64,000 nt of DNA, from contig NW_027252668.1 in the NCBI RefSeq assembly GCF_044704955.1, positions 4,464,001 to 4,528,000 of the forward strand. The letters are read 5' to 3'. The notes beneath the pieces are model-generated. The model worked only from the letters and a program-made list of their open reading frames with translations, was not told where the DNA came from and did not search any database. Origin of the DNA: Pristiophorus japonicus. Its lineage: Eukaryota. Position 1 is the stretch's first letter; each line of letters begins with the position of its first letter. Shown here one piece after another: positions 6,421-62,340 of this stretch. Made by a program: the position numbers and the translations under genes.

Positions 6421-6550
6421 CCAATTTACTTTTATCAGAATCTGAACAAAGGAACTGGGCCTGGGGGGAAAGGACAGAGAATGATTAAAGCTGGGAGCCT
6501 TGTCCCTTGGAGATGCTCAATTTGGGATCATCCGTGCAGGGTGTTTACAT

Positions 6551-7245
6551 AACATAAGAACATAAGAATTAGGAATCTAGCCCCTCGAGCCTGCTCCGCC
6601 ATTCAAAAAGATCATGGCTGATCTGGCCGTGGACTCAGCTCCACTTACCCGCCCGCTCCCCATAACCCTTAATTCCCTTATTGGTTAAAAATCTATCTAT
6701 CTGTGATTTGAATACATTCAATGAGTTAGTCTCAACTGCTTCCTTGGGCAGAGATTTCCACAGATTCACAACCCTCTGGCAGAAGAAATTCCTTCTCAAC
6801 TCGGTTTCAAATTGGCTCCCCCGTATTTTGAGGCTGTGCCCCCGAGTTCTAGTCTTCCCGACCAGTGGAAACAACCTCTCCGCCTCTATCTTGTCTATCC
6901 CTTTCATTATTTTAAATGTTTCTAGAAGATCAGCCCTCATCCTTCTGAACTCCAACGAGTAAAGACCCAGTCTACTCAATCTATCATCATAAGGTAACCC
7001 CCTCATCTCCAGAATCAGCCTAGTGAATCGTCTCTGCACTCTCTCCAAGGCTAGTATATCTTTCCTTAAGTAAGGTGACCATAACTGCACGCAGTACTCC
7101 AGATACGGCCTCACCAATACCCTATACAGTTGCAGCAAGACCTCCCTGCTTTTGTACTCCATCCCTCTCACAATGAAGGCCAGCATTCCATTCGCCTTCC
7201 TGATTACCTGCTGCACCTGCAAACTAACATTTTGGGATTCATGCA
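6551..7245 (-). mobile_element. CR1 LINE 3' part, interrupted by the Tx1 stack; resumes at 14395-14450
   Basis: Tail (CATAAGAA)n at 6551; protein LHESQNVSLQVQQVIRKANGML...RVVNLWKSLP; collinear with the uninterrupted copy at 26447-27693; absent from paralogous site near 38940. Confidence 0.93.
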
Positions 7246-9535
7246 ATTTGATCCGATTTTTGTACGCCGCCGCGGAGTGTCTGATTAAGGTTAACGGGTC
7301 CTTGACGGCGCCCCTTCGCTTTAGGAGAGGGGTGCGCCAGGGATGCCCCATGTCCGGCCAGTTATATGCCATCTGCGTGGAGCCTTTCCTGCGCCTCCTG
7401 CGGACGAGGTTGACGGGACTGGCTCTGCAAGGGCCGGGCGTGGAGGTCGTCCTCTCGGCTTACGCCGATGACGTGCTCCTCGCGATAGAGGATCCCGCTG
7501 ACCTGCGGAGGATGCGTGAGTGCCAGGAGATTTACTCGGCCGCGTCCTCCGCCAGGATCAACTGGGAGAAATGTTCCGGAATCTTGGTGGGTCAGTGGCG
7601 GGTGGACTCCCTGCCGGAGGAGCTCAGGCCTTTTGCCTGGAGCACGACCCATCTCCTCTATCTGGGAGTCTACCTTAGCCCCGACGAGGGAGCCTGGCCG
7701 GCGAACTGGCAGGAGCTGGAGGCCAAGGTCGCCGCTCGCCTAGGGCGCTGGACAGGACTGCTCCGAGTGCTGTCCTACAGGGGTCGAGCGCTAGTCATAA
7801 ACCAGCTGGTGGCCGCAATGCTGTGGTACCGGTTGGTCACTTTGACCCCTCCCCCTGCGTTTGTCGCCAAGATACAGAAGAAGCTGGTGGACTTCTTCTG
7901 GAACAACAGGAAAAACTGGGTCTCTGCCGCGGTCTTGAGTCTCCCGCTTGAGGAGGGCGGTCAGTCGTTGGTGTGCGTCAGCGCCCAGCTCGCGACTTTC
8001 CGTCTTCAGACCCTGCAGAGATACCTTTACGTCGAGCCCCCTCCTAGGTGGTGCGCTCTGGCGAGGTATTTCTTCCGCCAGCAGCTCGACCTCAACTATG
8101 ACACGCAGCTCCTGTTTGTGAACTTGGGGGGTGCCAGGACCGCCCTCCGGGAGCTGCCTGTCTTTTACAGGGAACTCATCAGGGTCTGGAACAAAGTCTC
8201 CACCAAGCGCAGCTCTCCGCCGGCTGGAGTGGCGGCTGTCCTGCAGGAACCGCTGCTCGGGAATCCGTACCTCCACGGCCGAGGTTTTATGTGGCGGTCG
8301 GAAGAGAGGGCTGTGGCTGGTGAGGTGACCAGGGTCAGGGACCTGCTCGATGGCGGAGGAGCGGGCTGGATGGCGCCAGACACGCTGGCGCGGCGCCTAA
8401 ATTCTGCCAACGTCCGCCACGCGGCCGATGCCATCGAGTCGCTAAAAACAGCTCTGGGCCCTGACTCCGTTAGGTGCATCGAGGAGGCTCAAGCACGTGG
8501 GGAGATCCCGTCCGAACTGACCCCCGTCCGGACGGAATTCCTCATCGGCGCCAAACCCCGGAACCTCCCTCGGGGGCCGGCGCCTCACAACTTGAGCCGC
8601 CTCGGGGAAATCCCCTCTGTGCCTTTCAGTTCCGCGCGGAGGGGTTTCCTGTACGGGCTGCTCCTGCACACCCTCAACTTTGCCATCCTCGCCGGCCGTC
8701 CGGACACGCCATGGCGTACCATCTTGCCGTCCGGAGGAGGCGGGGGTCCCCGATGGAGGGCACTCTACGCAGGGGTCCTCCCACTATTCATCGGGGGCTT
8801 GGCCTGGAGGATGGTGCACGGAGCAGTGCCGTGCAATAAATTTTTAAGCCGGTTCACGGACTCCCAGGCTGCCTGCAATTTCTGCGGTCTGGAAGAGTCC
8901 GTGTTCCATGTTTTTATGGAATGCACAAGGTGGCAGCCCCTGTTTTATTATTTGAAGGGGCTGCTCCTGAAATTCTGGGTGCACTTCAGTCCCACTCTCC
9001 TGATCTTTGGGCACCCTGTGCGGAGGGGAGTGGGTAGGTCCGAAGGCCTCCTCGTAGGACTGCTCCTGGGCACGGCCAAGGGTGCCATCAGCCGGTCCAG
9101 GCAGCGGGCGGTCGAGGGGGTCGTTCAACCTGACTGCCTGCCTCTCTTCCGCTCTTACATCCGGTCCAGGGTGTCCTTGGAGATGGAGCACGCGGTGTCT
9201 ACCGGTACGCTCGCGGCCTTCCGCGAGAGGTGGGCACCGGAGGGACTGGAGTGCATCATCACGCCCGGCAACCAAATTTTAATTTGATTTTACGTTTTAA
9301 AGTTAATTTGTTTTAATTGCCGGTGCTTTTAGTGTCCCCTTCCCTTTTATAGGGGGCACTGGGGAAAAATTGTGATTTTAGTGCCAAAAAAAAAACAAAA
9401 AAAAAAGAAAAACACAAAAAAAAAAGAAAAAAAAAGGGGGGAAAAAAAAAGGGCCTTGTAAATGTCTGGAGTGTCACCCAGGTCGGGTGGCACCGTTTAA
9501 TGTTTTATGTTTTGCAGGTGAACTCCAAAAAGAGT
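7246..9535 (+). mobile_element. Tx1-clade (L1 group) non-LTR retrotransposon, 5'-truncated copy 1; ORF2 remnant open to 9287
   Basis: RGVRQGCPMSGQLY and AYADD RT motifs, YLGV, GRALVINQL, C-terminal CNFC...H...C zinc knuckle; no endonuclease; structured 3' UTR. Confidence 0.88.
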
Positions 9536-9543
9536 TTCATGCA

Positions 9544-11831
9544 ATTTGATCCGATTTTTGTACGCCGCCGCAGAGTGTCTGATTAAGGTTAACGGGTCCT
9601 TGACGGCGCCCCTTCGCTTTAGGAGAGGGGTGCGCCAGGGATGCCCCATGTCCGGCCAGTTATACGCCGTTTGCGTGGAGCCTTTCCTGCGCCTCTTGCG
9701 GACGAGGTTGACGGCACTGGCTCTGCAAGGGCCGGGCGTGGAGGTCGTCCTCTCGGCTTACGCCGATGACGTGCTCCTCGCGATAGAGGATCCCGCTGAC
9801 CTGCGGAGGATGCGTGAGTGCCAGGAGATTTACTCGGCCGCGTCCTCCGCCAGGATCAACTGGGAGAAATGTTCCGGACTCCTGGTGGGTCAGTGGCGGG
9901 TGGACTCTCTGCCGGAGGAGCTCAGGCCTTTTGCCTGGAGCACGACCCATCTCCTCTATCTGGGAGTCTACCTTAGCCCCGACGAGGGAGCCTGGCCGGC
10001 GAACTGGCAGGAGCTGGAGGCCAAGGTCGCCGCTCGCCTACGGCGCTGGACAGGACTGCTCCGAGTGCTGTCCTACAGGGGTCGAGCGCTAGTCATAAAC
10101 CAGCTGGTGGCCGCAATACTGTGGTACCGGCTGGTCACTTTGACCCCTCCCCCTGCGTTTGTTGCCAAGATACAGAAGAAGCTGGTGGACTTCTTCTGGA
10201 ACAACAGGAAGCACTGGGTCTCTGCTGCGGTCTTGAGTCTCCCGCTTGAGGAGGGCGGTCAGTCGTTGGTGTGCGTCAGCGCCCAGCTCGCGACTTTCCG
10301 TCTTCAGACCCTGCAGAGATACCTTTACGTCGAGCCCCCTCCTAGGTGGTGTGCTCTGGCGAGATATTTCTTCCGCCAGCAGCGCGACCTCAATTATGAC
10401 ACGCAGCTCCTGTTTGTGAACTTGGGGGGTGCCAGGACCGCCCTCCGGGAGCTGCCTGTCTTTTACAGGGAACTCATCAGGGTCTGGAACAAAGTCTCCA
10501 CCAAGCGCAGCTCTCCGCCGGCTGGAGTGGCGGCCGTCCTGCAGGAACCGCTGCTCGGGAATCCGTACCTCCACGGCCGAGGTTTTATGTGGCGGTCGGA
10601 AGAGAGGGCTGTGGTTGGTGAGGTGACCAGGGTCAGGGACCTGCTCGATGGCGGAGGAGCGGGCTGGATGGCGCCAGACACGCTGGCGCGGTGCCTAAAT
10701 TCTGCCAACGTCCGCCACGCGGCCGATGCCATCGAGTCGCTAAAAACAGCTCTGGGCCCTGACTCCGTTAGGTGCATCGAGGAGGCTCAAGCATGTGGGG
10801 AGATCCCGTCCGAACTGACCCCCGTCCGGACGGAATTCCTCATCGGCGCCAAACCCCGGAACCTCCCTCGGGGGCCGGCGCCTCACAACTTGAGCCGCCT
10901 CGGGGAAATACCCTCCGCGCCTTTCAGTTCCGCGCGGAGGGGTTTCCTGTACGGGCTGCTCCTGCACACTCTCAACTTTGCCATCCTCGCCGGCCGTCCG
11001 CACACGCCATGGCGTACCATCTTGCCGTCCGGAGGAGGCGGGGGTCCCCGATGGAGGGCACTCTACGCAGGGGTCCTCCCACTATTCATCAGGGACTTGA
11101 CCTGGAGGGTGGTGCAAGGAGCAGTGCCGTGCAACAAATTTTTAAGCCGGTTCACGGACTCCCAGGCCGCCTGCAATTTCTGCGGTCTGGAGGAGTCCGT
11201 GTTCCATGTTTTTATTGAGTGCACGAGGTTGCAGCCCCTGTTCCATTATTTGAAGGGGCTGCTCCTGAAATTCTGGCTGCACTTCAGTCCCACTCTCCTG
11301 ATCTTTGGGCACCCTGTGCGGAGGGGAGCGGGTAGGTCCGAAGGCCTCCTCGTAGGACTGCTCCTGGGCACGGCCAAGGGTGCCATCAGCCGGTCCAGGC
11401 AGCGGGCGGTCGAGGGGGTCGTTCAACCTGACTGCCTGCCTCTCTTCCGCTCTTACATCCGGTCCAGGGTGTCCTTGGAGATGGAGCACGCGGTGTCCAC
11501 CGGTACGCTCGCGGCCTTCCGCGAGAGGTGGGCACCGGAGGGACTGGAGTGCATCATCACGCCCGGCAACCAAATTTTAATTTGATTTTACGTTTTTAAG
11601 TTTAATTTGTTTTAATTGCCGGAGCTTTTAGTGTCCCCCTTCCCTTTTATAGGGGGCACTGGGGAAAATTGTGAATTTAGTGCCCCAAAAAAAAAAACCA
11701 AAAAAAGAAAAACACAAAAATAAAAAAAAAAGGGGGGAAAAAAAAAAGAGCCTTGTAAATGTCTGGAGTGTCACCCAGGTCGGGTGGCACCGTTTAATGT
11801 TTTATGTTTTCGCAGGTAAACTCAAAAGAGT
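9544..11831 (+). mobile_element. Tx1-clade retrotransposon, 5'-truncated copy 2; ORF2 remnant open to 11585
   Basis: Same motifs and same 5' junction (TTCATGCAATTTGATCCGA) as copy 1, with private substitutions. Confidence 0.88.
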
Positions 11832-11839
11832 TTCATGCA

Positions 11840-14108
11840 ATTTGATCCGATTTTTGTACGCCGCCGCGGAGTGTCTGATTAAGGTTAACGGGTCCTTGAC
11901 GGCGCCCCTTCGCTTTAGGAGAGGGGTGCGCCAGGGATGCCCCATGTCCGGCCAGTTATACGCCGTTTGCTTGGAGCCTTTCCTGCGCCTCTTGCGGACG
12001 AGGTTGACGGGACTGGCTCTGCAAGGGCCGGGCGTGGAGTTCGTCCTCTCGGCTTACGCCGATGATGTGCTCCTCGCGGTAGAGGATCCCGCTGACCTGC
12101 GGAGGATGCGTGAGTGCCAGGAGATTTACTCGGCTGCGTCCTCCGCCAGGATCAACTGGGAGAAATGTTCCGGACTCCTGGTGGATCAGTGGCGGGTGGA
12201 CTCCCTGCCGGAGGAGCTCAGGCCTTTTGCCTGGAGCACGACCCATCTCCTCTATCTGGGAGTCTACCTTAGCCCCGACGAGGGAGCCTGGCCGGCGAAC
12301 TGGCAGGAGCTGGAGGCCAAGGTCACCGCTCGCCTAGGGCGCTGGACAGGACTGCTCCGAGTGCTGTCCTACAGGGGTCGAGCGCTAGTCATAAACCAGC
12401 TGGTGGCCGCAATGTTGTGGTACCGGCTGGTCACTTTGACCCCTCCCCCTGCGTTTGTCGCCAAGATACAGAAGAAGCTGGTGGACTTCTTCTGGAACAA
12501 CAGGAAGCACTGGGTCTCTGCTGCGGTCTTGAGTCTCCCGCTTGAGGAGGGCAGTCAGTCGTTGGTGTGCGTCAGCGCCCAGCTCGCGACTTTCCGTCTT
12601 CAGACCCTGCAGAGATACCTTTACGTCGAGCCCCCTCCTAGGTGGTGTGCTCTGGCGAGGTATTTCTTCCGCCAGCAGCGCGACCTCAATTATGACACGC
12701 AGCTCCTGTTTGTGAACTTGGGGGGTGCCAGGACCGCCCTCCGGGAGCTGCCTGTCTTTTACAGGGAACTCATCAGGGTCTGGAACAAAATCTCCACCAT
12801 GCGCAGCTCTCCGCCGGCTGGAGTGGCGGCCGTCCTGCAGGAGCCGCTGCTCGGGAATCCGTACCTCCACGACCGAGGGTTTATGTGGCGGTCGGAAGAG
12901 AGGGCTGTGGCTGGTGAGGTGACCAGGGTCAGGGACCTGCTCGATGGTGGAGGAGCGGGCTGGATGGCGCCAGACACGCTGGCGCGGCGCCTAAACTCTG
13001 CCAACGTCCGCCACGCGGCCGATGCCATCGAGTCGCTAAAAACAGCTCTGGGCCCTGACTCCGTTAGGTGCATCGAGGAGGCTCAAGCACGTGGGGAGAT
13101 CCCGTCCGAACTGACCCCCGTCCGGACGGAATTCCTCATCGGCGCCAAACCCCGGAACCTCCCTCGGGGGCCGGCGCCTCACAACTTGAGCCGCCTCGGG
13201 GAAATTCCCTCCGTGCCTTTCAATTCCGCGCGGAGGGGTTTCCTGTACGTGCTGCTCCTGCACACTCTCAACTTTGCCATCCTCGCCGGCCGTCCGGACA
13301 CGCCATGGCATACCATCTTGCCGTCCGGAGGAGGCGGGGGTCCCCGATGGAGGGCACTCTACGCAGGGGTCCTCCCACTATTCATCGGGGACTTGGCCTG
13401 GAGGGTGGTGCACGGAGCAGTGCCGTGCAACAAATTTTTAAGCCGGTTCACGGACTCCCAGGCCGCCTGCAATTTCTGCGGTCTGGAGGAGTCCGTGTTC
13501 CATGTTTTTATCGAGTGCACGAGGTTGCAGCCCCTGTTCCATTATTTGAAGGGGCTGCTCCTGAAATTCTGGCTGCACTTCAGTCCCACTCTCCTGATCT
13601 TTGGGCACCCTGTGCGGAGGGGAGCGGGTAGGTCCGAAGGCCTCCTCGTAGGACTGCTCCTGGGCACGGCCAAGGGTGCCATCAGCCGGTCCAGGCAGCG
13701 GGCGGTCGAGGGGGGTCGTTCAACCTGACTGCCTGCCTCTCTTCCGCTCTTACATCCGGTCCAGGGTGTCCTTGGAGATGGAGCACGCGGTGTCCACTGG
13801 TACGCTCGCGGCCTTTCGCGAGAGGTGGGCACCGGAGGGACTGGAGTGCATCATCACACCCGGCAACCAAATTTTAATTTGATTTTACGTTTTAAAGTTT
13901 AATTTGTTTTCATTGCCGGTGCTTTTAGTGACCCCCTCCCCTTTTATAGGGGGCACTGGAAAAATTTGATTTTAGCGCCCCAAAAAAAAAACAAAAAAAA
14001 AAGGAAAAAAAGAAAAAAAAAAGGGGCCTTGAAAATGTATGCTGTGTCACCCAGGCGGGTGGCATGGTTTTAATGTTTATGGTTATTTTCAGGTAAACTC
14101 AAAAGAGT
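11840..14108 (+). mobile_element. Tx1-clade retrotransposon, 5'-truncated copy 3; +1 frameshift in G-run near 13710
   Basis: Same 5' junction; ORF splits into 11671-13728 and 13676-13882; 3' UTR visibly more divergent than copies 1, 2 and 4. Confidence 0.88.
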
Positions 14109-14116
14109 TTCATGCA

Positions 14117-14394
14117 ATTTGATTTACGTTTTAAAGTTTAATTTGTTTTAATTGCCGGTGCTTTTAGTGTCCCCTTCCCTTTTATAGGGGGCACTGGGGA
14201 AAAATTGTGATTTTAGTGCCCAAAAAAAAAACTACAAAAAAAAAGAAAAACACAAAAAAAATAACCCAAAAAAAGGAAAAAAAGGGCCTTGTAAATGTCT
14301 GGTGTGTCACCCAGGTCGGGTGGCACGGTTTAATGTTTTATGTTTTGCAGGTAGACTCTAATAGAGTTTCATGCACAAGGGCTCCAAAAAGAGT
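14117..14394 (+). mobile_element. Two further Tx1 remnants: 3'-UTR-only copy (14117-14367) and 14-bp 3' tip (14381-14394)
   Basis: 14117-14367 matches the UTR of the long copies; GCTCCAAAAAGAGT is flanked by 13-bp direct repeats TTCATGCACAAGG (14368-14380, 14395-14407). Confidence 0.85.
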
Positions 14395-14571
14395 TTCATG
14401 CACAAGGACCTCCAGGTCCCTCTGCACCGCAGCATGTTGTAATTTCTCCCTATTCAGCCATCTTCACAAAGCAATCCTGCAAAAACATCGGAGGGACGAG
14501 GGAGTGGGAGTTTTTGCTGGGACCGTGCAGGAGTTAATATCTGACAGAAATAGTTCGAGATTAGTTTAGTT

Positions 14572-15760: not shown

Positions 15761-16226
15761 TGATCACAGCCAAGCGAGTGATAAATGTGGGACACTGTTT
15801 CTCTCACTCTCTGACACTGTCCCGCAGTGTGGGATTCATAATGTGTCTGTCTCTGGTACAATATAGTGAGAGAGGAGACTTCATCTTCTGTCTCTCCAGA
15901 ATAAAACGGGACTTCACAGGTCAGTCTGGAACTGATACTGTGCATGTCTTTCTGTGTCTCACCGCCCGACCTCGCACTCTCCTGTCTCTCGCTCAGACCT
16001 CTCCCCTCTCTCTCTGCCTCTCTGTTGCTATTCGCTCTCTCTTGTACTGGTTGTGAAGGCGGGATACTGTTATTTAGCGTGATGTGGAAACACTGTTGGA
16101 AGTGCAAGACGGATAATGTCTCTGTTTCTCTCTCTGGTGCAATACATGAAGGTGTAGCACTGTTACTGAGCGTATTATGGAGACACTGATACAAAGTGTA
16201 AAACTGATACTGTATCTGTCTGTGTC

Positions 16227-16715
16227 TGGGCGACCAACATCCTCAAGGTTGTGGCCGATGGCAAGGATCGCAGAGGAATGTCCCTGGCCACGATAAAGAA
16301 GACTCTGGCGGCCAAAGGTGTGGATGTGGAGAAGCGCAGGTCCCAGATCAGATTCAGTAATCAGAAGAATGTGATGAATGGCTCCCTGAAGCAGATCAAG
16401 GGCACGGGCGCCTCGGGCTCCTTCAAAATCGCTAAGACGGATCCCCAGGAGAAAGTGGGAAAGAAGGTGAAGAAGCCAGCAGCCAAGAAAGCAGCAGCCA
16501 AGAAATCTCCAGCAAAGAAAGCAGCAACTAAGAAAACGAGCACCAAGAAGGCACCAACAGCAAAAAAGATAGCGAAAGGGCCGGCTGGGAAGAAGGCGGC
16601 GGTGAAGAAACCCAAGAGCCCCAAGAAAATGAAGGCGACCAAAAAGGTGGAGAACCCGAGGGTCAAGGCCACGTCCAAATCAGCAAAGGCCAAGAAAGCA
16701 GCGCCCAAAAAGTAA
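16227..16715 (+). pseudogene. H1: Histone H1, 5'-deleted copy A (no promoter or ATG)
   Basis: Globular-domain remnant [10 protein letters not shown] and K/A/P tail; relative to copy B about 1.2 kb (approx. 41376-42544) is missing. Confidence 0.9.
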
Positions 16716-16749
16716 ATAAAAAGGCAACTTCTAAACATTTAAACCTAAA

Positions 16750-16790
16750 GGCTCTTCTCAGAGCCACCCACGCCTTTCAGAAAAGAGCTG
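16750..16790 (+). terminator. Histone 3' stem-loop and downstream element (H1 copy A)
   Basis: GGCTCT-TCTC-AGAGCC-ACCCA followed by AGAAAAGAGCTG (U7 HDE). Confidence 0.92.
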
Positions 16791-16889
16791 ATCCCGGAAT
16801 CAAATAATCCCTGTCCCGGGCTCAGATTCCAGAAAGAAATCATTGAAAATGACCCCGGGATCCCTCGTGACTCATTGCCATTGGCTGCA

Positions 16890-17175
16890 CCCAACCCCGC
16901 CCCTACCCCAGGGTCTGCACCCGCCCCTACCCCAGTATCTGCACCCACCCCTCCCCCAGTGTCTGCACACACCCCTCTCCCAGTGCCTGCACCCACCCCT
17001 CCCCCAGTGCCTGCACCCTCCCCCAGTGTCTGCACCCACCCCTCCCCAGTGCCTGCTCCCACCCCTCCCCCAGTGTCTGCACCCACCCCCCACCCCCAGT
17101 GTCTGCACCCACCCACCCCCCCAGTGTCTGCACCCACCCCTCCCCCAGTGTCTGCACACACCCCTCCCCCTGTGC
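16890..17175. repeat. About 23-bp C-rich minisatellite (CCCCTCCCCAGTGTCTGCACCCA); shorter paralog at 43380-43465
   Basis: Roughly 12 units here against about 4 in copy B. Confidence 0.9.
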
Positions 17176-17797
17176 CTACAATAAAACACAGAGAATGGAA
17201 TGTCCGGCCCGGGACTCACTGTAACTGGGATTTGAGTCCGGCTCCAGTCTCAGTTCCTGGTCATTGTCATTTCACAGATTCAGGGGGAAGAGTCTCTGTG
17301 AGACGATGGGACTGGCGGCGATATCTCGCCTCACAACTCAAACTCCAAACTCCAGATTCTCAAAATCAGCTGGAATAAGGTGTTTGTAAAGTGCTGAACC
17401 GGTCTGTGAGAGGAGATGGAATGAAGTCTGAGATTGACAGGGAACGGACTATATAGGCGGGAATATTCCTGATTGTGAATTGTACCGGGACCTTATTTAA
17501 CAGGTTCTGGTCCCTGGAAGCCTTGAATATGAATTCCGAGTCTGTAAGGGTTTGTGCGAAGCACTGTGTATCGGTTGTATTGTGGAGAAAACAATTTGAA
17601 ATTGGCGGTTGTAGAAAGCTGGAGGTGGAGCTGGAAGATCAGAGGCGGCGCTCTGCTCTGTCTCTCAATCTCAATCTTGATTCTGTCTCCTCCCCTTCCC
17701 GCCTCTCTCACTCTGCGCTTTCTCAGTCAGGTCGGGCCGGCTCTCTCAAAAATGAGCCAGGAGGAGTTGGTTCCTCATTCAGCGACAGTTTGAGTGA

Positions 17798-18118
<321 letters not shown>

Positions 18119-18257
18119 ACAACTCCACCCTTTCCACCCAGCACAACACAAAGGCTCTTTTAAGAGCCACCCACCTCCTCACAGAGAGAGCAGTGACCTG
18201 GGGATGGGAGTGTGGACAGTTTGGGTGGGAAATTATTTCAGCTATTTAATTAAAGGA

Positions 18258-18345
18258 AACACTTTGATATATATAGCGCCTTACACGGCCATCGGACTTC
18301 TCAAAGCCAATAAAGTACTTTTGCAGTGCAGTCGCTGTAGGAATA
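18258..18345 (-). mobile_element. 3' fragment of DeuSINE/SacSINE1-like SINE
   Basis: TATATAGCGCCTT...AGCCAATAAAGTACTTTT resembles the 3' end of the element at 47929-48347. Confidence 0.5.
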
Positions 18346-18699
18346 TGGGAACTATTAAATATTTTAGAACAATAGTTTAATATGAGATCAGAAACTCCGG
18401 GTGTCCCGGTCACAATGAGCGGGCGGGGATACACAGTCTCCTTTAACCGACATTACAGTCTCCCCTCACAGATAATCCTGTAATGTTGTGAGCTTTGTGT
18501 GACAATTGATGAAACGGGACGGCACTGGCGGGATGGATGCGGGACTTTGTGTTTACAGGATGCAGTGACCGGGGAATTATTCCCGCCCGCTACAGACCCA
18601 TCAGGGAATGGGACAGAATTAAAACCGGAATGTTAAAGAGAATGGGATTGGTGATTTATAATGGGGCACCATCGAGGTTATAAAGAGCCGGATTCTTAA

Positions 18700-19379
<680 letters not shown>

Positions 19380-19742
19380 ACTCTTCCTGCCCGGGCTCCA
19401 AGCTTTCGCACCAAGTGCAACAACGGCTCTTTTCAGAGCCACCAAATCAGCAAAGGAAAGGGCTGCGACCCGCTCCACGCAAACTGTCCCGTGTACACAC
19501 CGTGCACGTCTTGTAGTGTTACTATAACTGGGGCTTTATGTAGTGTAGGCGGTGATTATCTGACGGTGCGGCTTTCATACATGTATCGATGCGAGTCAGA
19601 TGCCCAGTATACCGACTACACCAGCCCAATGTGGGTCGCTAACTAAGTGGGAGATGTGATAGTGAATTGATCCCACTGCACATACCGGTACAGATTCCAG
19701 AGAGGGGACGAGCTGTCTGTAATCTGTATCTCACCTTTTAAC

Positions 19743-20231
19743 CAGCGAAGGTTCACCAGACTGATTCCCGGGATGGCGGGACTGACCTATCAAGAAAGAC
19801 TGGATCAACTGGGCTTGTATTCACTGGAGTTCAGAAGAATGAGAGGGGACCTCATAGAAACATATAAAATTCTGACGGGGTTAGATGCAGGAAGAATGTT
19901 CCCAATGTTGGGGAAGTCCAGAACCAGGGGTCACAGTCTAAGGATAAGGGGTAAGCCATTTAGGACCGAGATGCGGAGGAACTTCTTCACCCAGAGAGTG
20001 GTGAACCTGTGGAATTCTCTACCACAGAAAGTTGTTGAGGCCAATTCACTAAATATATTCAAAAAGGAGTTAGATGAGGTCCTTACTGCTAGGGGGATCA
20101 AGGGGTATGGCGAGAAAGCAGGAATGGGGTACTGAAGTTGAATGTTCAGCCATGAACTCATTGAATGGCGGTGCAGGCTAGAAGGGCCGAATGGCCTACT
20201 CCTGCACCTATTTTCTATGTTTCTATGTTTC
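19743..20231 (+). mobile_element. CR1 3' fragment inserted in the H3-H2A spacer of copy A only
   Basis: RT C-terminus plus TTCTATGT tail; empty site in copy B near 45245. Confidence 0.92.
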
Positions 20232-20629
20232 TTAATGCGGGCACAGGTCGGATACTATTTGGGATATTTTAAATTAGCCATGAGATGGAATTCCATCCTT
20301 CTGTACGCAAATTTAAAAAAAAGATAAAAGTCCTCATGGATCAATCTGTTCAGAATGTATATATTTCTCCCTATGGAATTATTACTCCTATAAAAGTCAG
20401 TGAGCCCATCAACCGCTCATTCCTTTATACTCGGCTCTTATCATCCGGTTCACATTCGGCTGTCCCAACATGTTCAATAACTAGCGGTCTGACGTTCAGC
20501 TTCCGTCGATTTTGTATAAAATTAGATCAGTGACAATTGTGATCCACAAAACAGAAAGCAGCCCTTTCACAGATACTGTGGGTGGCTCTGAAAAGAGCCT
20601 TTGGGTTATTAGATTAAATCCTGTCCGCT

Positions 20630-21004
20630 TTACTTGCCCTTGGGCGCACTGGCGGTTTTCTTGGGCAGCAGCACAGCCTGGATATTAGGCAGCACTCCAC
20701 CCTGAGCGATGGTCACCTTTCCCAGCAGCTTGTTGAGCTCCTCGTCGTTGCGGATGGCCAGCTGTAGGTGTCTGGGGATGATGCGGGTCTTCTTGTTGTT
20801 GCCGGCCAGCTCCAGGATTTCAGCGGTCAGATACTCGAGCACAGCAGCCATGTAGACCGGGGCTCCGGCACCCACACGCTCAGCGTAGTTCCCCTTTCGC
20901 AGATGCCTGTGAACACGGCCCACAGGGAACTGCAGTCCGGCCCGCGAGGAGCGAGACTTGGCCTTGGCCCGAACTTTACCGCCACTTTTTCCTCTCCCAG
21001 ACAT
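20630..21004 (-). CDS. H2A: Histone H2A (copy A) with in-frame 12-bp deletion (AARD), possibly a pseudogene
   Basis: [11 protein letters not shown] versus [15 protein letters not shown] in copy B; stem-loop 20584-20599; TATA at 21062-21066. Confidence 0.9.
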
Positions 21005-26446: not shown

Positions 26447-27693
26447 CATAAGAACATAAGAATTAGGAACAGGAGTAGGCCATCTAGCCCCTCGAGCCTG
26501 CTCCGCCACTCAACGAGATCATGGCTGATCTGGCCATGGACTAAGCTCCACTTACCCGCCCGCTCACCATAAGCCTTAATTCCCTTATTGGTTAAAAATC
26601 TATCTATCTGTGATTTGAATACATTCAATGAGCTAGCCTCAACTGCTTCCCTGGGCAGAAAATTCCACAGATTCACAACCCTCTGGGAGAAGAAATTCCT
26701 TCTCAACTCGGTTTTAAATTGGCTCCTTTGTATTTTGAGGCTGTGCCCCCTAGTTCTAGTCTCCCCGACCAGTGGAAACAACCTCTCTGCCTCTATCTTG
26801 TCTATCCCCTCCATTATTTTAAATTTTTCTATAAGATCACCCCTCATCCTTCTGAACTCCAACGAGTAAAGACCCAGTCTACTCAATCTAGCATCATAAG
26901 GTAACCCTCTCATCTCCGGAATCAGCCTAGTGAATCATCTCTGTACCCGCTCCAAAGCCAGTATATCCTTCCTTAAGTAAGGTGACCAAAACTGCACGCA
27001 GTACTCCAGGTGCGGCCTCACCAATACCCTGTACAGTTGCAGTCGGTCCTCCCTGCTTTTGTACTCCATCCCTCTCGCAATGAAGGCCAACATTCCATTC
27101 GCCTTCCTGATTACCTGCTGCACCTGCAAACTAACTTTTTGGGATTCATGCACAAGGACCCCCAAGTCCCTCTGCACCGCAACATGTTGTAATTTCTCCC
27201 CATTCAAATAATATTCCCTTTTACTGTTTTTTTTTCCAAGGTGGATGACCTCACATTTTCCAACATTGTATTCCATCTGCCAAACCTTAGCCCATTCACT
27301 TACCCTCTCTAAATCTCTTTGCAGCCTCTCTGTATCGTCTACACAACCCGCTTTCCCACTAATCTTTGTGTCATCTGCAAATTTTGTTACACTACACTCT
27401 GTCCCCTCTTCCAGGTCATCTATGTATATTGTAAACAGTTGTGGTCCCAGCATCGATCCCTGTGGCACACCACTAACCACTGATTTCCAACCCGAAAAGG
27501 ACCCATTTATCCCGACTCTCTGCTTTCTGTTAGCCAGCCAATTCTCGATCCATGCTAATACATTTCCTCTGACTCCGCGTACCTTTATCTTCTGCAGCAA
27601 CCTTTTGTGTGGCACCTTATCGAATGCCTTTTAGAAATCTAAATACACCACATCCATCGGTACACCTCTATCCACCATGCTCGTTATATCCTC
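26447..27693 (-). mobile_element. CR1 3' fragment carrying an empty Tx1 target site (TTCATGCACAAGG, 27145-27157)
   Basis: ORFs 26935-27615 and 26446-26913; CATAAGAA tail; same subfamily as 6551-7245. Confidence 0.93.
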
Positions 27694-40873: not shown

Positions 40874-42432
40874 GGCCCTGGGTTGCACGATTGCAGATAG
40901 TTCAATAGGCAAGCGAGTGATAAATGTGGGACATTGTTTCTCTCACTCTCTGACACTGTCCCGCAGTGTGGGATTAATAATGTTTCTGTCTCTGGTACAA
41001 TATCAGTGAGACAGGAGACTGCATCTTCTGTCTCTCCAATGGGAACTTTCAGAATAAAACGGGACTTCACAGGTCAGTCTGGAACTGATACTGTGCATGT
41101 TTTCTGTGTCTCACCGCCCTACCTCGCACTCTCCTGTCTCTCGCTCAGCCCTCTCCCCTCTCTCTGCCTCTCTGTTGCTATCCCTCTCTCTTGTACTTTT
41201 TGTGAAGGCGGGATACTGTTATTTAGCGTGATGTGGAAACAGTGTTGGAAGTGCAAGACTGATAATGTCTCTGTTTCTCTCTGGTGCAATACGTGAAGGT
41301 GTGGCACTGTTACTGAGCGTATTATGTAAACACTGATACAAAGTGTAAAACTGATACTGTATCTGTCTCTGTGTCTTTTCCGCTGGTGCTGTACATTAAT
41401 GTGTGATAATATTATTGAAAGTAATATGGAGACACAGTTCGGTAGTTTAAGATTGATACTGTGTCTGTCTCTCTGTCACTCTCTCTGATAGCCATCTCTG
41501 GGTGTTGAGTATGGGATGGATAGGCACCAGTTACTGATATATGTCCCTCATTTTCTGAGGAGAGAGAGACAAAGAGAGGCTGCAGGGGCGGTGAGCTCAT
41601 AATTTATATTTTCATGTTAGTCAAACATATTTCTGCATTAGAACAATAACAACTTAAAAGCAGATATGGGTTAAGCCAGCCACAGCTATGATTGGCTCCT
41701 GCCCCTGAATCTGGGAACAGACACTGTGAGGAGCGCCGGCCTCAGAGTGTTTAACACTTCCTGAGCTGGGAAACTACAACTGACCCGAGAATCGGCAGCA
41801 CAGCCGAGCGGAGAGGAAAGCCTGTGCTGGGAACTGTAAATCTGGGAACAGTTTGTGCTGTGAATGTGCAGATTTCAACATTGTGTGAGCGAGAGTGTGT
41901 TGAAGGAGCGGGCGGGTTAGACAAATGTCACTGTGTTTGTGTGTCCGCTCTCATCGCCGGATTTCAGAGTCCCTCTTGTGTAAAATTCAAAGATTTCCCC
42001 GTCACAGGATCGCCCTGCTGCCCTGCTCAGGTCTGAAGTGGGAATGAATCAGAAAGTTTGATTTGGTTTCAAATTTCAGTCAAAAACAGAGAAAATATCC
42101 GCGATCGGCTGAGAGAGCGCGACCAGTGCAGCAATGAAACGGGTTTAAATCGAAATTGCTGCCTTCAATTCGGATGGAACTTTCTCGGCAGCAAACATTC
42201 CGGTCTTCGGGACAGAAAGAGGCCAGTCTGGGAATGTGGAGGGCCCGAGTTGAATTGGAATCGGAGAGTGAGTGAGGAGAGAGAAACACACAGAGGCTGG
42301 AGGGGCCGGGAGCTGACAGCAGGATGTCTCCTCCTCGTCCGCTCGCTGCCTTTACGTTGCTCTGTGTCGCCGCTTCTCGTTTCATTTCTGACCCAGCTCT
42401 GACTGTCAGAGAGATTTTCCAGAGTCTCGGAC

Positions 42433-43201
42433 ATGACTGATACTGCAGCCGCCGAAACGGCTCCTCCTGCTGCCGTCGCTCAAACCAAGGCTCCCAGCAA
42501 GAAGAAGAAGGCGGCTCCCCGCTCCGGGCCAGCCGGTCCCAGGTTGGGCGACCAGATCCTCAAGGTTGTGGCTGATGGCAAGGATCGCAGGGGAATGTCC
42601 CTGGCCGCGATAAAGAAGGCTCTGGCGGCCAAAGGCGTCGATGTGGAGAAGCGCGGCTTCCAGATCAGGTCCAGTATCAAGAAGAATGTGATGAATGGCT
42701 CCCTGAAGCAGATCAAGGGCACGGGCGCCTCGGGCTCATTCAAAATCGCTAATACAGATCCCCAGGGGAAAGTGGGAAAGAAGGTGAAGAAGCCAGCAGC
42801 CAAGAAATCTCCAGCAAAGAAAGCAGCAGCCAAGAAATCTCCAGCAAAGAAAGCAGCAGCCAAGAAATCTCCAGCAAAGAAAGCAACAGCCAAGAAATCT
42901 CCAGCAAAGAAAGCAGCAGCCAAGAAATCTCCAGCAAAGAAAGCAGCAGCCAAGAAATCTCCAGCAAAGAAAGCAACAGCCAAGAAATCTCCAGCAAAGA
43001 AAGCAGCAGCCAAGAAAACGAGCACCAAGAAGGCGCTAACGACAAAAAAGACAGCGAAAGGGCCGGCTGGGAAGAAGGCGGCGGCGAAGAAGCCCAAGAG
43101 CCTCAAGAAAGTGAAGGCGGCCAAAAAAGGTGGAGAACCCGAGGGTCAAGGCAACGTTCAAATCAGCAAAAGCCAAGAAAGCAGCGCCCAAAAAAAAATA
43201 A
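42433..43201 (+). CDS. H1: Histone H1 (copy B) with +1 frameshift in A-run 43123-43128; corrected frame ends PKKK* at 43201
   Basis: [13 protein letters not shown]..., globular domain, seven [10 protein letters not shown] repeats; H1 box AAACACA about 42284; stem-loop 43232-43247. Copy A has A5 at the same site. Confidence 0.88.
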
Positions 43202-44118
43202 AAAGGCAACTTCTAAACATTTCAACCCAAAGGCTCTTCTCAGAGCCACCCACGCCTCTCAGAAAAGAGCTGATCCCGGAATCAAATAATCCCTGTCCCG
43301 GGCTCAGATTCCAGATAGAAATCATTGAAAATGACCCCGGGATCCCTGGTGACTCGTTGGCATTGGCTGCACCCCACCGCGCCCCCAGTGTCTGCACCCA
43401 CCCCTCGCCCAGTGTCTGCACCCACCCCTCCCCCAGTGTCGGCACCCACCCCTCCCCCAGTGCCTACAATAAAACACAGAGAATGGGATGTCCGGCCGGC
43501 CTCACTGTAACTGGGATTTGAGTCCGGCTCCAGTCTCAGTTCCTGGTCATTGTCATTTCACAGATTCAGGGGGAAGAGTCTCTGTGAGACGATGGGACTG
43601 GCGGCGATATCTCGCCTCACAACTCAAACCCCAAACTCCAGATTCTCCAAATCAGCTGGAATAAGGTGTTTGTAAATTGCTGAACAGGTCTGTGAGAGGA
43701 GATGGAATAAGGTCTGAGATTGACAGGGAACGGACTATATAGGCAGGAATATTCCTGATTGTTAATTGTACCAGGACCTTATTTAAAAGCTTCTGGTCCC
43801 TGGAAGCCTTGAATATGTATTCCGAGTCTGTAAGGGTTTGTGCGGAGCGCTGTGTATCGGTTGTATTGTGGAGAAAACAATTTGAAATTGGCAGTTGCAG
43901 AAAGCTGGAGGTGGAGCTGGAAGATCAGAGGCGGCGCTCTGCTCTGTCTCTCAATCTTGATTCTGTCTCCTTCCCTGCCGCGCTCTCTGTTCAATCTCTC
44001 ACTCTGTCTCCTCCCCTTCCCGCCTCTCTCACTCTGCGCTTTCTCAGTCAGGTCGGGGCCGGCTGGAGAAAAATGAGCCAGGAGCAGTTGCTTCCTCATT
44101 CAGCGACAGTTTGAGTGA

Positions 44119-44896
<778 letters not shown>

Positions 44897-45646
44897 ACTC
44901 CCCCTGCCCGGGCTCCAAGCTTTCGCACCAAGTGCAACAACGGCTCTTTTCAGAGCCACCAAATGAGCAAAGGAACGAGCTGCGACCGGCTCCACGCAAA
45001 CTGTCCTGTGTACACATCGTGCACGTCTTGTGTTACTATAACTGGGGCTTTATACAGTGCAGGCGGTGATTATCTGGCTTTGATCCAGGTATCAATGCGA
45101 GTCAGATGCCCAGTATACCGACTGCACCCGCCCAATATGGGTCGCTAACTAAGATCTGATCGTGAATTGATCCCACTGCACAGACCGGAATAGATTCCAG
45201 AGAGGGGACGAGCTGCCTGTAATCTGTATCTCACCTTTAACCCAGCTCTTAATGTGGGCACAGGTCGGATACTATTTGTAATATTTTAAATTAGCCATGA
45301 GCGGGAATTCCATCCTTCTGTACGCAAATTTTAAAAAAGGGTAAAATTCCTCATTGATCAATGTGTTCAGAATGTATATATTTCTCCCTGTGGAATTATT
45401 GCCCCTATAAAAGTCAGTGAGCTCATCAACCGCTCATTCCTTTCTACTCGGCTCTTATCATCCGGTTCATATTCGGCTGTCCCAACATGTTCAATAACTG
45501 GCGGTCTGACGTTCAGCTTACGTCTGTTTTGTATTAAATTAGATCAGGGACAATTGTGATCCATAGAACAGAAAGCAGCCCTTTCACAGACAATGTGGGT
45601 GGCTCTGAAAAGAGCCTTTGGGTTATTAGATTAAATCCTGTCCGCT

Positions 45647-46213
<567 letters not shown>

Positions 46214-47048
46214 TTACTGTCTTCAACAGTCAGAATATCGATTTTTAATTCAAAAACCCCGCCAAGAAATTTTAAAATAGCGGCTTATGTGAATATAAAT
46301 TCACCATTAGTCAAAGTTTTCCCAACACGTTTTAATTAATTTTGTCTTTTACATATTCCCCTTGCAAGTTCCAGGCTGTTACAATCAGGATTAAATTCGG
46401 GTACTATTTCAAACTGTCTAATGGGCGGGAATCAATCTCCACCGATTCTGTAACGGGACACATTCCAACTCAATCTTTGTAAAAGTTGGGTTTCACAGAT
46501 TATCGATCGATTCCCCGCAAAGGCGGGAGTGAGCCCTTCTGTGAAAAAAGAGGGACAGAGTGTTCAAACTGCCCCGGTTCTGGTCTCTGTAAGAACTCCC
46601 ATTCTGGGTTGTTACACTTCGGGGAGTCTCGGGTTAATAAACGGACTGACCCGCAACAGGAATTGAAAAATAAACTTGAAAAGGGCATGCGAGAGAGAAT
46701 GTGTGACTGGAATCTGAGTCTCAGCCCCTAAACAAGCTCTTAATTCGGCAGACGGTGTAAATGAACATGTCTGAGCAAAGGGAAACAGCGACCAGGGACC
46801 GTATTTGTAGTTGGCGGAAAATTCCAGCGACGCTAAGGTGGAACCGGACAGTGAAACTGATATCTGAGAATTCAAAACTAAATCTAGCTGGAAGTGTAAA
46901 CATTTTTAAATATACTTGTTCAGGAAATAATTACAGTAAACAGAGTGTAAAGGGAGATGCGTTTGTGCAGCACTTTCAGAGAGGCTGTGGGTGGCTCTTA
47001 AAAGAGCCGTTGTGTTTGGGGTTTGATCTGTCAGGACAGCGGGCAGTC

Positions 47049-47426
47049 TCACTTAGAGCTGGTGTACTTGGTCACCGCCTTTGTCCCTTCCGACACGGCG
47101 TGCTTGGCCAGCTCCCCGGGCAGCAGCAGGCGCACGGCGGTCTGGATCTCCCGGGAACTGATGGTGCGGCGCTTGTTGTAATGGGCCAGGCGGGAAGCCT
47201 CACCCGCGATGCGCTCGAAAATATCGCTCACAAACGAGTTCATGATGCCCATGGCCTTGGAGGAGATGCCGGTGTCGGGGTGAACCTGCTTCATCACTTT
47301 GTAGATGTAGATGGCGTAACTTTCCTTCCTCGACTTTCTGCGCCTCTTGCCGCTCTTCGCTGGGGTTTTCTTGATTACTTTCTTGGCGCCTTTCTTGGCG
47401 GGACCTGTTTTCTTTTCGTCAGCCAT
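47049..47426 (-). CDS. H2B: Histone H2B
   Basis: [11 protein letters not shown]...[10 protein letters not shown]; stem-loop 46993-47008. Confidence 0.98.
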
Positions 47427-47469
47427 CGACTCGTTCAGTCAGGCGCAGATTTGGGGAAACTCTGCTCCG

Positions 47470-47610
47470 AGCCCGTATTATATCGGCAGCCCCACACTCC
47501 GCCCACAGCCCTATGCTAATGAGGGATGGGCGAAGGCAATGGTTGTTATTGGCTTGTCAATATCCATTGTTCTGTATCTCTCTGATTGGATGTTTAAAGA
47601 GACCAATCAG
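47470..47610 (-). promoter_or_regulatory. H2B promoter
   Basis: TATA-like ATATAATA about 47476-47483, octamer variant ATTAGCAT 47513-47520, three CCAAT boxes 47548-47607. Confidence 0.8.
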
Positions 47611-48589: not shown

Positions 48590-49850
48590 TATAGCTGTCA
48601 GTCGCTGATATGTGAGTGTTGTTTTTTTACCTCAGTTACTGGCAGGCGAATTTGGGTCTTATTATACACCTGTCAAATTCTGGTATGTGATTATCATTCT
48701 GTTTCTGTCTGTCTCTGTGATATGTGTGTGGGTTTATTCTGCACTTTGTCAGTTTCTGTATGGGAGTGCGTGTTTTATTCTCTACCGGGCAGCCTCTGGT
48801 ATGATAGTGTGGGATTTCATCTGTACCTGTCCATCTGTGGCTGGTATCTGAGTGGGGTTTAATCTGTAATTTCTGGTATGTGAGTGTTGGGTATAATCTG
48901 TACCTGTCATTTCTGGTATTTGATTGTGGGGTTTAATCTGTACCTGTCAGTTTTTGATATCTGACTGGAGTTTAATCTGTACCTATCTGTTTCTGGTATG
49001 TGAGTTGTGTGTTTTATTCTGTACTTGTCAATTTCTGGTATGCAAGTGTTGGATTTATTTTATACCCATCAGTCTCTAGTATGCGAGTGTGGAGTTTAAT
49101 CTGCATCTGTCTGATTCTGGTTTGTGAGAGTTGGGTTTCATCTGTACCTGGCAGGTTCTGATATGTAAGTGTGGGGTTTATTCTGTACCTTTCTGCCTGA
49201 GTATGTGAGTGTAATGTTTATTCTGTACCTGTCAGTGAGTGTGGGGGATATTCGGTACCTCTGTTTCAGGTGTGTGAGTGTTAGATTTAGTCTGTACCTG
49301 GTTGTTTCTGGTATACAAATGTTGTGTTAAATCTGTACCCATCAGTTTCCACTTTGTGAGTGTGGGGTTATTCTGTAGCTGTCTGTCTCTGGTATATGAG
49401 TGTGGGATTTAATCTGTACCTGTCATTTCTGGTATGTGAGTGTGGGTTTAAACTGTAGCTGTCATTTCTCGTATGCGAGTGTGGGTTTAATCAAAATCTG
49501 TACCTGTCAGATTCTGGTGTGTGAATATGGGTTTTATTCTGTATCTATCATTTTCTGGTATGTGAGGGTGGGCTTTTCTCTATTTTTCTGGCCTTGGTAT
49601 GTGAGGATGGGATTTCATCTGTACCTGCCAATCTGTGGCTGGTATATGAGAGTGGAGTATAATCTGTACCTGTCACTTTCAGGGATGTGAGAGTGGGATT
49701 TAATCTGCACCTGTCATTTCTGGTGAGTGTTGGGTATAATCTGTACCTGTAGGATTTCCTCGCTTTCTGTCAACTTCTGCTACAAAGTTTTTACCCTGAA
49801 TTTTTCAGTTTCTGGGAGGGGAATGCGGGTTTCACTTTGTACCGGTCAGC
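48590..49850. repeat. Degenerate about 41-bp satellite
   Basis: Same family as earlier arrays. Confidence 0.85.
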
Positions 49851-60957: not shown

Positions 60958-62340
60958 ATGGGTAATCTGTTAGATAAAACCACGGATGCGGATAGTCCGC
61001 TACAAAAGTTATGTGAGGAATTCCCTGAAAGAGCTGAAGACTTTAGAAAATTATCAGGAGCCCTGAATAAATTATTGGGAGATGATCAATGGCCTCTAGG
61101 TGGCACTAGAAGCGTAGAGGTAGTAAAAAAAAAGGACAGGGATTGTTAAAAAAAAAATTAATTAAAAGATGCATCACTTCCGTCAAGTTGGCAAACAAAT
61201 GCTATTAAATTAGGACTTGCATTGACAGAGGGAACACATGTTAAAACTGTAGACGTCTTAAAGAAAGAATGTGCGCACAAGAAACTTACTAAGAGATCCT
61301 CTGGGACCTCTAAGAAAAGTATTGATCAACTACGAGTTAAAATGGCTGGCATTGTGTTAACCGAGGCTGATGATGAAATTGATGAGTGGCCACTGACTCA
61401 GCGCCCAACGGCGCCTCCCGCACCCCCTGGCCTCTTGCTCCAGTCCTCTTCCCAACACCCTCCACCTTACACTCCGGCGAGAGGAGTTAGGAACAACCCC
61501 ATACCACCAAAGCAACAAACCCGAACTGACTCCTCATCTTCTGATAGCGATTCAGATCCCCAGTTTACAAGCAATATAGCCGAATGGACCAGATCTCACA
61601 CTCGAAAGGGCAGAACTATATCTCGACATCACAAACAGTCCCGTAAATCTTCTAGTCAATCTATCAGTCCAAGTTGTGAAAGACATAGCAAACACCCCCG
61701 CTGATTGAGACGCAGAACTGTCAAGCAGTCAGACAGCTCCGAAACATCCTCCGACCTAGAAATTATTTCCAAGATCCCAAAGTCCCAACACCAATTCCCT
61801 GTCAGACCAATGCCAAACCCTGATGCACAACAAGCTGCAGACCACCTCTCTATAGATGTCTGTGATCTTCAAACAACTATTTGATTGCTCACGCTATCCG
61901 GACAGATGGAGAGGACAGTTAGATATTATTGGCAGGAAAAGAAAGGGGAGGGGGGAGGTGCACCCCCAACCCGGGTCAAGACTGAATACGTGACTAGAAA
62001 GGAAGAGCCATCTCGGGAGGAAGGATCAATAGAACCGTAGTGTTGCATACAGGATTGGATGGATAAGCAAGGATACGGTTATACTAAACAACCAAATGGC
62101 CCGAGCCCTGCTAATAAACCTCCCTATTGTCCCCGGCATGGTATGGGAAGAGGCCGGGACTGGGTAAGAGGAATTGACTGTTTTAATTGTGGGCAGGAAG
62201 GACATTGGAATAAAAATTGCCCCTACCATCAGGATGGAAAAGGAAGAGGAGGAAGAGGAGGGGGGGGCAAGGGGGGAGAGGAGGATCTTACACTAACTTC
62301 TCCCAGAACAACCCCTTTGGTCAATTGTCCCCCGATTGAC
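60958..62340 (+). pseudogene. gag: ERV gag, frameshifted, most of capsid deleted
   Basis: MGNLL (Gly2), QWPLGGT matrix motif, PTAP and PPPY late motifs, single CFNCGQEGHWNKNC knuckle. Confidence 0.85.

Follow-up and report, generated by a model that had tools for sequence, protein, structure and literature searches.

The window considered here is a stretch of 64,000 nucleotides from Pristiophorus japonicus (contig NW_027252668.1, positions 4,464,001 to 4,528,000). Near its left end lies a fragment of a long interspersed nuclear element (LINE) of the CR1 type, which is split at a single site by five stacked pieces of another retrotransposon, related to the Tx1 elements. All coordinates given for this locus are those of the window.

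The stack and its host

The 3' ends of the five pieces, at 9535, 11831, 14108, 14367 and 14394, all read ...AGAGT and are directly followed by TTCATGCA. From left to right the pieces, here called c1 to c5, measure 2290, 2288, 2269, 251 and 14 bp, and the stack is bounded by TTCATGCA at 7238 and by TTCATGCACAAGG at 14395. These coordinates, ends and lengths, as well as a 13-bp duplication next to the smallest piece, match the initial annotation base for base.

The host is split at TTCATGCA|CAAGG, with the inserted element antisense within a fragment of CR1 open reading frame 2 (ORF2). The flanks 7100 to 7245 and 14395 to 14456 align with an uninterrupted CR1 around 27145, and when they are joined they form one minus-strand reading frame, ...QRDLEVLVHESQNVS... 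The left part of the host (6580 to 7237, minus strand) comprises the end of ORF2 and the 3' untranslated region (UTR), with short terminal repeats near 6548 to 6575; it matches other CR1s of the window in a self-BLAST and aligns to the empty CR1 at 27000 to 27152, and the frame is continuous over the site. To the right of the stack (14395 to 14456, minus strand) lie the original target and what little is left of the host, which is 5'-truncated here. Because about 55 to 60 bp are left on the 5'-ward side of the target, the host is a roughly 750-bp 3' fragment of CR1. An empty target, GGGA|TTCATGCACAAGG when read on the plus strand, is present in another CR1 of the same subfamily (27141 to 27157, minus strand), the sense strand of which codes for DLGVLVHES. 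We take the host LINE to be probably a CR1, as does the initial annotation, from the motifs QRDLGV, FTRLIP and RTRGHSL and its short tandem tail; Pfam confirms reverse transcriptase (RT) alone, with an RVT_1 match on the empty-site copy.

All pieces of the stack are on the plus strand. The leftmost target-site duplication (TSD; 7238 to 7252) consists of the CR1-derived TTCATGCA and of ATTTGAT from the 5' junction of c4. Copy c1 (7246 to 9535) is 5'-truncated at element position 4908, inside the RT, and its frame is open up to the ORF2 stop at 9287; matches to RVT_1 and zf-RVT are found on its sister copy c2 (9544 to 11831), which has the same truncation point and another source lineage. The third long copy, c3 (11840 to 14108), begins at this point as well, belongs to a divergent 3' UTR subfamily and has an ORF2 frame that is broken near the end. 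Duplications of TTCATGCA mark the boundaries between c1 and c2 (9536 to 9543), between c2 and c3 (11832 to 11839) and before c4 (14109 to 14116, 8 bp). Copy c4 (14117 to 14367) is made up of 3' UTR only (element positions 6939 to 7184), while c5 (14381 to 14394) is the 14-bp 3' tip of the element, flanked on both sides by TTCATGCACAAGG, with the left of these forming the 13-bp TSD at 14368 to 14380. From the order that we infer for the stack, c5 is probably its first insertion. Very short 3' tips with full TSDs, about 12 to 35 bp long and similar to c5, are common at other loci (L080, L032, L111 and L102), where they are inherited as junction scars.

Structure and affiliation of the element

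A full-length copy, the recovery of which had been proposed in the initial annotation, is found at locus L062. It measures 7,184 bp and contains a 0.9-kb 5' UTR, an ORF1 of 699 amino acids, an ORF2 of 1,299 amino acids and a 3' UTR of 240 bp with an internal A-rich tract and without poly(A). ORF2 matches PF03372 (the apurinic/apyrimidinic-type endonuclease, APE), PF00078 (RT) and, below the cut-off, PF13966 (zf-RVT). The separate, upstream ORF1 had no match in a Pfam search; a CX2CX4HX4C motif is visible by eye, and the protein is 38% identical to part of a Takifugu Tx1 protein. In the 3' UTR of L062, at about element positions 7115 to 7145, a minimum free energy fold, calculated without shuffle control or covariation, places a 12-bp hairpin ~40 nt before the 3' end, which is a possible recognition signal.

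The closest named full-length protein to ORF2 is that of Xenopus Tx1L, with 49% identity over the whole length and 63% in the RT; the closest protein fragments are from stingray and horn shark (69 to 71%). In an RT tree of 35 rows, chosen by hand from 120 homologue hits, rooted at the midpoint and without L1, CR1 or Repbase references, the element lies in a clade with Tx1L and with turtle, sturgeon and stingray sequences (support 100/98). The fixed 3' end, the 5' truncation and the TSD are marks of target-primed reverse transcription (TPRT). These comparisons support the proposal of the initial annotation that the element belongs to the Tx1 clade, which is part of the L1 group of non-LTR (long terminal repeat) retrotransposons; its endonuclease is of the APE type. 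Membership of the R1 clade is rejected, as the closest named protein is Tx1L and the target is not rDNA; the element is R1-like in its stacking only. Of 20 array copies that were checked, 18 have an ORF2 of at least 1,299 amino acids and 13 an ORF1 of at least 688 amino acids as well. Since most of them keep near-full ORFs, the family is young. Turtle homologues annotated with PF14529 might have hinted at CR1 targeting in turtles, yet among the 120 homologous proteins no CR1-like segment above 40% identity was found, which leaves this idea unsupported.

Target specificity across the genome

The genome searched comprises 5.9 Gb. A 20-base end pattern, which represents one subfamily, has 2,870 matches, and 2,122 of these (74%) are followed by TTCATGCAC; the chance expectation from base composition is ~5e-6 per end, and the reversed-pattern controls gave 0. 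According to the portions covered of Kojima's study (PMC4494074), a Tx1 family is regarded as sequence-specific if more than 20% of its flanks are of one type, and here 74% have the exact 9-mer. In the first 30 ends, chosen regardless of flank, the 9-mer is present in 24; 12 of the 30 are followed by CR1 at the target, 15 by a further copy of the element, and the remaining 3 are located elsewhere. In the 29 other loci that best match c4, the motif follows directly in 24 and via a scar in one, while four are off-site. The initial annotation had predicted a genome-wide preference for a specific site in CR1 ORF2, antisense to it, and these counts bear it out.

Joining of the element's 3' end takes place at N|TTCATGCACAAGGA, which is antisense to the codons of CR1 that specify DLGVLVHES and lies ~700 bp from the 3' end of CR1; the four bases upstream vary (GGGA, GTCA, GTGT). 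Exact filled terminal junctions number 7,073 as against 27,469 exact empty sites, an occupancy of ~20%, and element sequence is present at all 20 filled sites sampled. The CR1 variant with GTCA upstream hosts long arrays. At the variant GTGT|TTCATGTACAAG, 5,932 sites are empty, as against no more than 280 ends, many of which are internal to arrays; among eight such ends inspected, one is clearly at the variant's upstream flank. The TSDs usually span 13 to 17 bp, and 14 to 17 bp at ten on-target copies that are single or terminal; the truncation points differ widely between loci, and both features mark independent insertions.

Because empty CR1s hold the motif and off-target copies (L014, L017, L033 and L047) duplicate their own flank over 13 to 15 bp, the motif is target DNA and not the end of the element. 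The case that the initial annotation had set against its own reading, with unrelated flanks or a motif belonging to the element's own terminus at a lone CR1 locus, therefore failed. The off-target sites mostly keep A|TTC(A), and seven of the eight that were seen start with TTC. The further suggestion of the initial annotation that the element disables CR1 finds no support here, as the host is already a 5'-truncated fragment and ~80% of the exact sites are empty.

Some observations weigh against such a specificity, or against the size of the counts. The exact 9-mer is missing from 748 of the 2,870 ends; in the sample of 30, the ends without it are three off-site copies, two short TSDs and one mutated site. 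The pattern counts include segmental duplicates, and the first 14 of the 20 filled sites collapse to 5 in this way: near-identical filled sites match at 98.6 to 99.8% across 4 kb, and since the match extends beyond the CR1 3' end, they are segmental duplications. Finally, the 5' junctions at L005, L008, L018, L069 and L075 have no clean TSD. On balance, the sequence comparisons leave little room for doubt that this Tx1 element inserts site-specifically into CR1. Presumably it is the endonuclease itself that reads the CR1 site.

Two side observations concern individual junctions. The flank of the off-target insertion L033 resembles, by eye, the endonuclease region of CR1 in sense orientation. 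At the 5' junctions of L005, L008 and L118, the truncated element is separated from the CR1 target by pieces that we presume to be tRNA-like; they suggest template switches to tRNAs and, like the varied truncation points, speak for independent insertions.

Arrays and their direction of growth

Stacking is not restricted to the window. Internal ends make up 15 of the 30 sampled, as against at most 20% under random site choice (P = 3e-4). Of the 5'-intact copies found, 4,582 are preceded by another copy and 489 immediately by the main CR1 flank, the only flank counted, so that ~90% are in arrays; some arrays have at least nine full-length copies. Sites outside CR1 stack too, with eight short copies at L071 (300-bp units of different subfamilies), four at L021 and two at L017.

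The direction in which such arrays grow can be read from two kinds of marks. Left copies contain bases whose only other occurrence is at the junction of the copy to their right (window c3, L004, L071 and L073). In the C7 array, the private substitutions from left to right number 2, 2, 5, 2, 6, 7, 14 and 12 (rho 0.90, P = 0.002), and an allele at position 22 is present in copies 1 to 7 and missing from copies 8 and 9. Because of these junction scars and this age gradient, later copies seem to enter on the 5' side of earlier ones, and growth very probably takes place mainly at the regenerated 5' junction. Two results speak against it: the C1 array has no significant age gradient (rho 0.36, P = 0.38), and c1 to c3, with 11, 12 and 12 private changes, are of equal age and form no gradient in the window.

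An older Tx1 copy, which occurs twice and on opposite strands, at about 51.755 and 51.790 Mb of C21 in G000 (L095 and L098-L099), is interrupted at element position 539, in the 5' UTR, by what resembles a 3' piece of CR1.

Shared junctions in neighbours of different lineage

The three long copies of the window all start at position 4908 of the reference element, behind the identical 12 bases TTCATGCAATTT, and they have 15 bases (TTCATGCAATTTGAT) in common with the 5' junction of c4. The ATTT ahead of them is not element sequence at that point and matches the start of c4. Their sole common private allele is a C-to-T change at element position 4915 (7257 in c1, 9555 in c2 and 11851 in c3, plus strand), 20 nt from the inferred nick and present in 0 of 18 other loci. 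Beyond this stretch the relationship disappears. The ORF2 divergence among them is 1.9 to 2.6%, the siblings rank 39 to 58 of 67, no closer than unrelated copies, their linked alleles recur at other loci, and each 3' UTR is closest to copies elsewhere; that of c1 has 2 differences from L021/L079 as against 7 to 23 from its siblings.

Hence c1 to c3 derive from independent templates, with one 5' junction that all three copies have inherited. A simple tandem duplication as the sole cause is ruled out by the divergence, the ranks and the lone common private allele. Likewise, c4 is unlikely to be a product of deletion of a 2.3-kb copy via ATTTGAT, as its UTR has 2 differences from L068 and 7 to 22 from the siblings; the bases common to c4 and c1 to c3 are better read as junction inheritance. 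Of the five plain independent insertions assumed in the initial annotation, the independent templates remain, while the single 5' junction of c1 to c3 calls for an extra step.

The same combination is found elsewhere. Of the neighbour pairs, 20 have a right copy that is truncated and a left copy of which the start is visible, and in 15 of these (8 loci) both copies start at the same base; these same-start pairs have 3 to 20 UTR differences, the between-locus median being 10. Full-length neighbours share an identical 5' tract with a median of 87 nt (23 pairs), as against 10 nt in 949 between-locus pairs, and the tract reaches at least 165 nt in 9 of the 23 and in 0 of the 949. Sharing anchored at the 3' end is at background level in full-length neighbours (median 14 vs 13, P = 0.09). 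Junction scars persist within arrays and differ between arrays. Two-piece units are repeated at L079, L051 and L080, and L119 has a duplication that spans the 5' junction.

Here too there are points on the other side. Neighbour pairs with near-full UTR cover number 45, and pairs within an array are not independent. Alleles are called private as judged against only 12 to 60 other loci of thousands. In the C21 array, two neighbour pairs are identical over 6 to 7 kb and are true duplicates or assembly copies, and at position 591 of the C7 array, the sharing of array-only alleles is patchy, a sign of gene conversion or of re-insertion of the array's own RNA.

A proposed mechanism of array growth and its alternatives

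The explanation that we favour combines a CR1-targeting Tx1 element, array growth at the 5' junction and joining by homology, and as a whole it can be held with good confidence. An APE-type element of the Tx1L lineage, 7.2 kb long, would insert by TPRT. The chemistry of that process would place the first nick at TGAA^T, in the sense strand of CR1, and have the other strand cut about 14 nt downstream. The duplication would restore the full target at the 5' junction, where the next copy could insert; for the window this would give the order c5, c4 and then c1 to c3. At a filled site, the new cDNA would be complementary to the resident's top strand just behind the TSD and would pair there, with the second nick falling inside the resident copy at a variable position. 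From the resident, the newcomer would thereby take over the junction, the point of truncation and a stretch of 5' sequence that varies from about 20 nt to several kb; its remainder would come from the new RNA. Over a longer distance, such pairing might bring in a short stretch of intervening sequence, which would give units of two pieces like those of L079, L051 and L080, and the duplication at L119 fits a distant cut of the top strand.

Homology-guided joining of the 5' end is the somewhat better bet given the shared tracts. A further step is more tentative and stays slightly short of an even chance: the resident copy, even one at a poor non-CR1 site, may act as a landing pad, with ribonucleoproteins (RNPs) returning to its 5' junction and integrating by strand exchange. 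If this is true, mosaic copies and polar full-length arrays would arise without unequal crossing-over. It would represent a homology-guided, self-reinforcing LINE integration in a vertebrate APE element, would account for the ~90% of some 5,000 5'-intact copies that are in arrays, and would provide a natural read-out of the position of second-strand cleavage.

The alternative that survives best, although we consider it rather unlikely, is a single prolonged event: once the first cDNA has been joined, the 3' end at the original nick would stay unsealed and be primed again by a further RNP, with the incomplete second strand pairing with every new cDNA. The equal ages of c1 to c3 would be expected, as would stacking above the random expectation and the collection of 2 to 8 copies at poor non-CR1 sites (L017, L021, L071). 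The age range in C7, and its position-22 allele, which arose in copy 7 and was passed on to copies 1 to 6, fit separate events instead. Such prolonged events can coexist with the mechanism favoured here.

The second alternative, to which we give about one chance in four, concerns the source of the specificity. It could reside largely in the RNA, with a read-through 3' tail annealing to the nicked DNA, and the endonuclease may want only A|TTC(A). With ~90% of the 5'-intact copies in arrays, read-through into TTCATGCACAAGG is likely; moreover, off-target sites keep only TTC(A), the off-target junction of L017 has an extra T, and the portions covered of PMC2718515 propose such a process for R1. 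It is opposed by the off-target 3' junctions at L007, L014, L017, L021, L033, L037, L047 and L071, none of which carries an extended tail of CR1 target sequence, and by the Tx1L endonuclease, which on its own is described as sequence-specific in the portions covered of PMC1950540.

Tandem duplication of one insertion by unequal exchange, followed by ectopic gene conversion by other copies, seems improbable as a general cause. It is surely acting in the C21 array, with its neighbours identical over 6 to 7 kb, and the repeated two-piece units and the patchy sharing in C7 may be counted in its favour; a model in which dimers expand by unequal exchange has also been published for R1 and other arrays (portions covered of PMC5932611). 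It would, however, need conversion over almost the whole length of nearly every unit, including the 300-bp units of L071, and it sits badly with tracts anchored at the 5' and not the 3' end and with the polar age gradient in C7.

That TTCATGCA is the element's own terminus, or that CR1-borne amplification carried the element along as a hitch-hiker, would suit a motif found after nearly every end and the near-identity of some filled sites, yet both readings are refuted and deserve next to no credence, given the 27,469 empty CR1 sites with the motif, its duplication on the 5' side, the off-target copies without it that duplicate other flanks, the truncation points that vary by locus and the 4-kb matches that make the near-identical sites segmental duplications.

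Other features of the window

Two histone gene clusters were recognized by motif scan at 16170 to 21000 and 42400 to 47520; both contain H1, H4, H3 and H2A, and the second also H2B. At 911 to 2300 lies a tandem repeat of 30-bp units in which both strands have long open frames; at 49800 to 58200, LINE fragments are interspersed among the units, of roughly 41 bp, of a long array. Open frames at 61162 to 61704 and 62700 to 63233 are, by eye, presumably retroviral or LTR-element-like (a PPPY motif and a QW/KQP-type stretch).

Significance

With this element, a LINE coding motif joins the known Tx1 targets, and it does so at scale, with ~1 in 5 exact sites of one CR1 subfamily filled. Roughly 5,000 5'-intact copies are present in the genome; at full length they would add up to about 36 Mb. 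As the target is ~700 bp from the CR1 3' end, truncated CR1 copies also offer it, and CR1 activity keeps supplying new sites. CR1 is abundant in many vertebrates, and related targeting may therefore be overlooked. Little is understood of the way in which the second strand is cut and primed by APE LINEs; the arrays represent thousands of records in which the length of the tract in common with the resident would bound the second nick. As the element is young and intact, assays of nicking and with reporters are within reach, and the shortness of its endonuclease loop, described below, provides a natural comparison with Tx1L for target choice by APE.

Other species seem to have related elements. 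Parts of ORF2 were found in 20 sequencing runs from 8 organisms and 8 studies, with no RNA run listed. Contigs of four runs cover the element and CR1 parts of the junction, and two of those listed have the target base itself as their first; no listed contig piece from these four runs spans the element/CR1 junction. Runs X14 and X15 (organisms E and F) have very deep cover by a related family of about 85% identity, which implies high-copy relatives in other species.

Comparison with known systems

The closest known system is Tx1L of Xenopus laevis, the type member of the Tx1 clade (YTX2, P0004), which likewise has two ORFs and an APE-RT-zinc ORF2 of the same length. In the portions covered of PMC4494074 and PMC1950540, Tx1L inserts at a fixed site inside another transposon, Tx1D. 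That target is a non-autonomous piggyBac element, whereas the target here is a protein-coding motif of a CR1 LINE. A hairpin loop of the endonuclease, which is tied to target choice in the portions covered of PMC1950540, reads VRPGVGWS here and is three residues shorter than VRVRDGHVSQS of Tx1L. The crocodilian family Tx1-Mar and its relatives prefer Mariner-N4, Harbinger and LTR elements, one of the sites being antisense (Kojima 2015, PMC4494074). In the main-text portions covered of that study they have no LINE target, tandem insertion is mentioned for their SINE (short interspersed element) partners, and they are old (85 to 87% identity), unlike the young shark element. The portions covered of a review (PMC8869645) name 'other TEs' among targets. 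No description of a Tx1 target in CR1, or of any shark Tx1 target, was found in the literature searched, which lay outside Repbase and most subscription papers. A new target for a known kind of element is well supported, and the signature of array growth likewise has no earlier description in that literature.

With regard to stacking, the nearest parallel is R1 in the 28S rDNA of Drosophila, which is of the APE type as well, has a 14-bp TSD and forms tandem arrays, and which differs in clade and target. Its arrays arise as new copies insert into the TSD found at a resident's 5' end (Stage and Eickbush 2009, PMC2718515), and a double insertion at one site is regarded as the seed of an array (McGurk and Barbash 2018, PMC5932611). 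In the portions covered of both papers, independent insertions are recognized by their distinct truncations, and junctions that are identical are put down to later amplification; the same truncation point in neighbours with different templates, as found here, is not described for R1 in these portions. For R2, it has been proposed that the cDNA pairs with the target's top strand before second-strand cleavage (Khadgi et al. 2019, PMC6895275, portions covered); the paper itself leaves the case of APE LINEs open. In R2 the homology is provided by rDNA sequence on the RNA; here it would be provided by the element sequence of the resident copy, and in an APE LINE.

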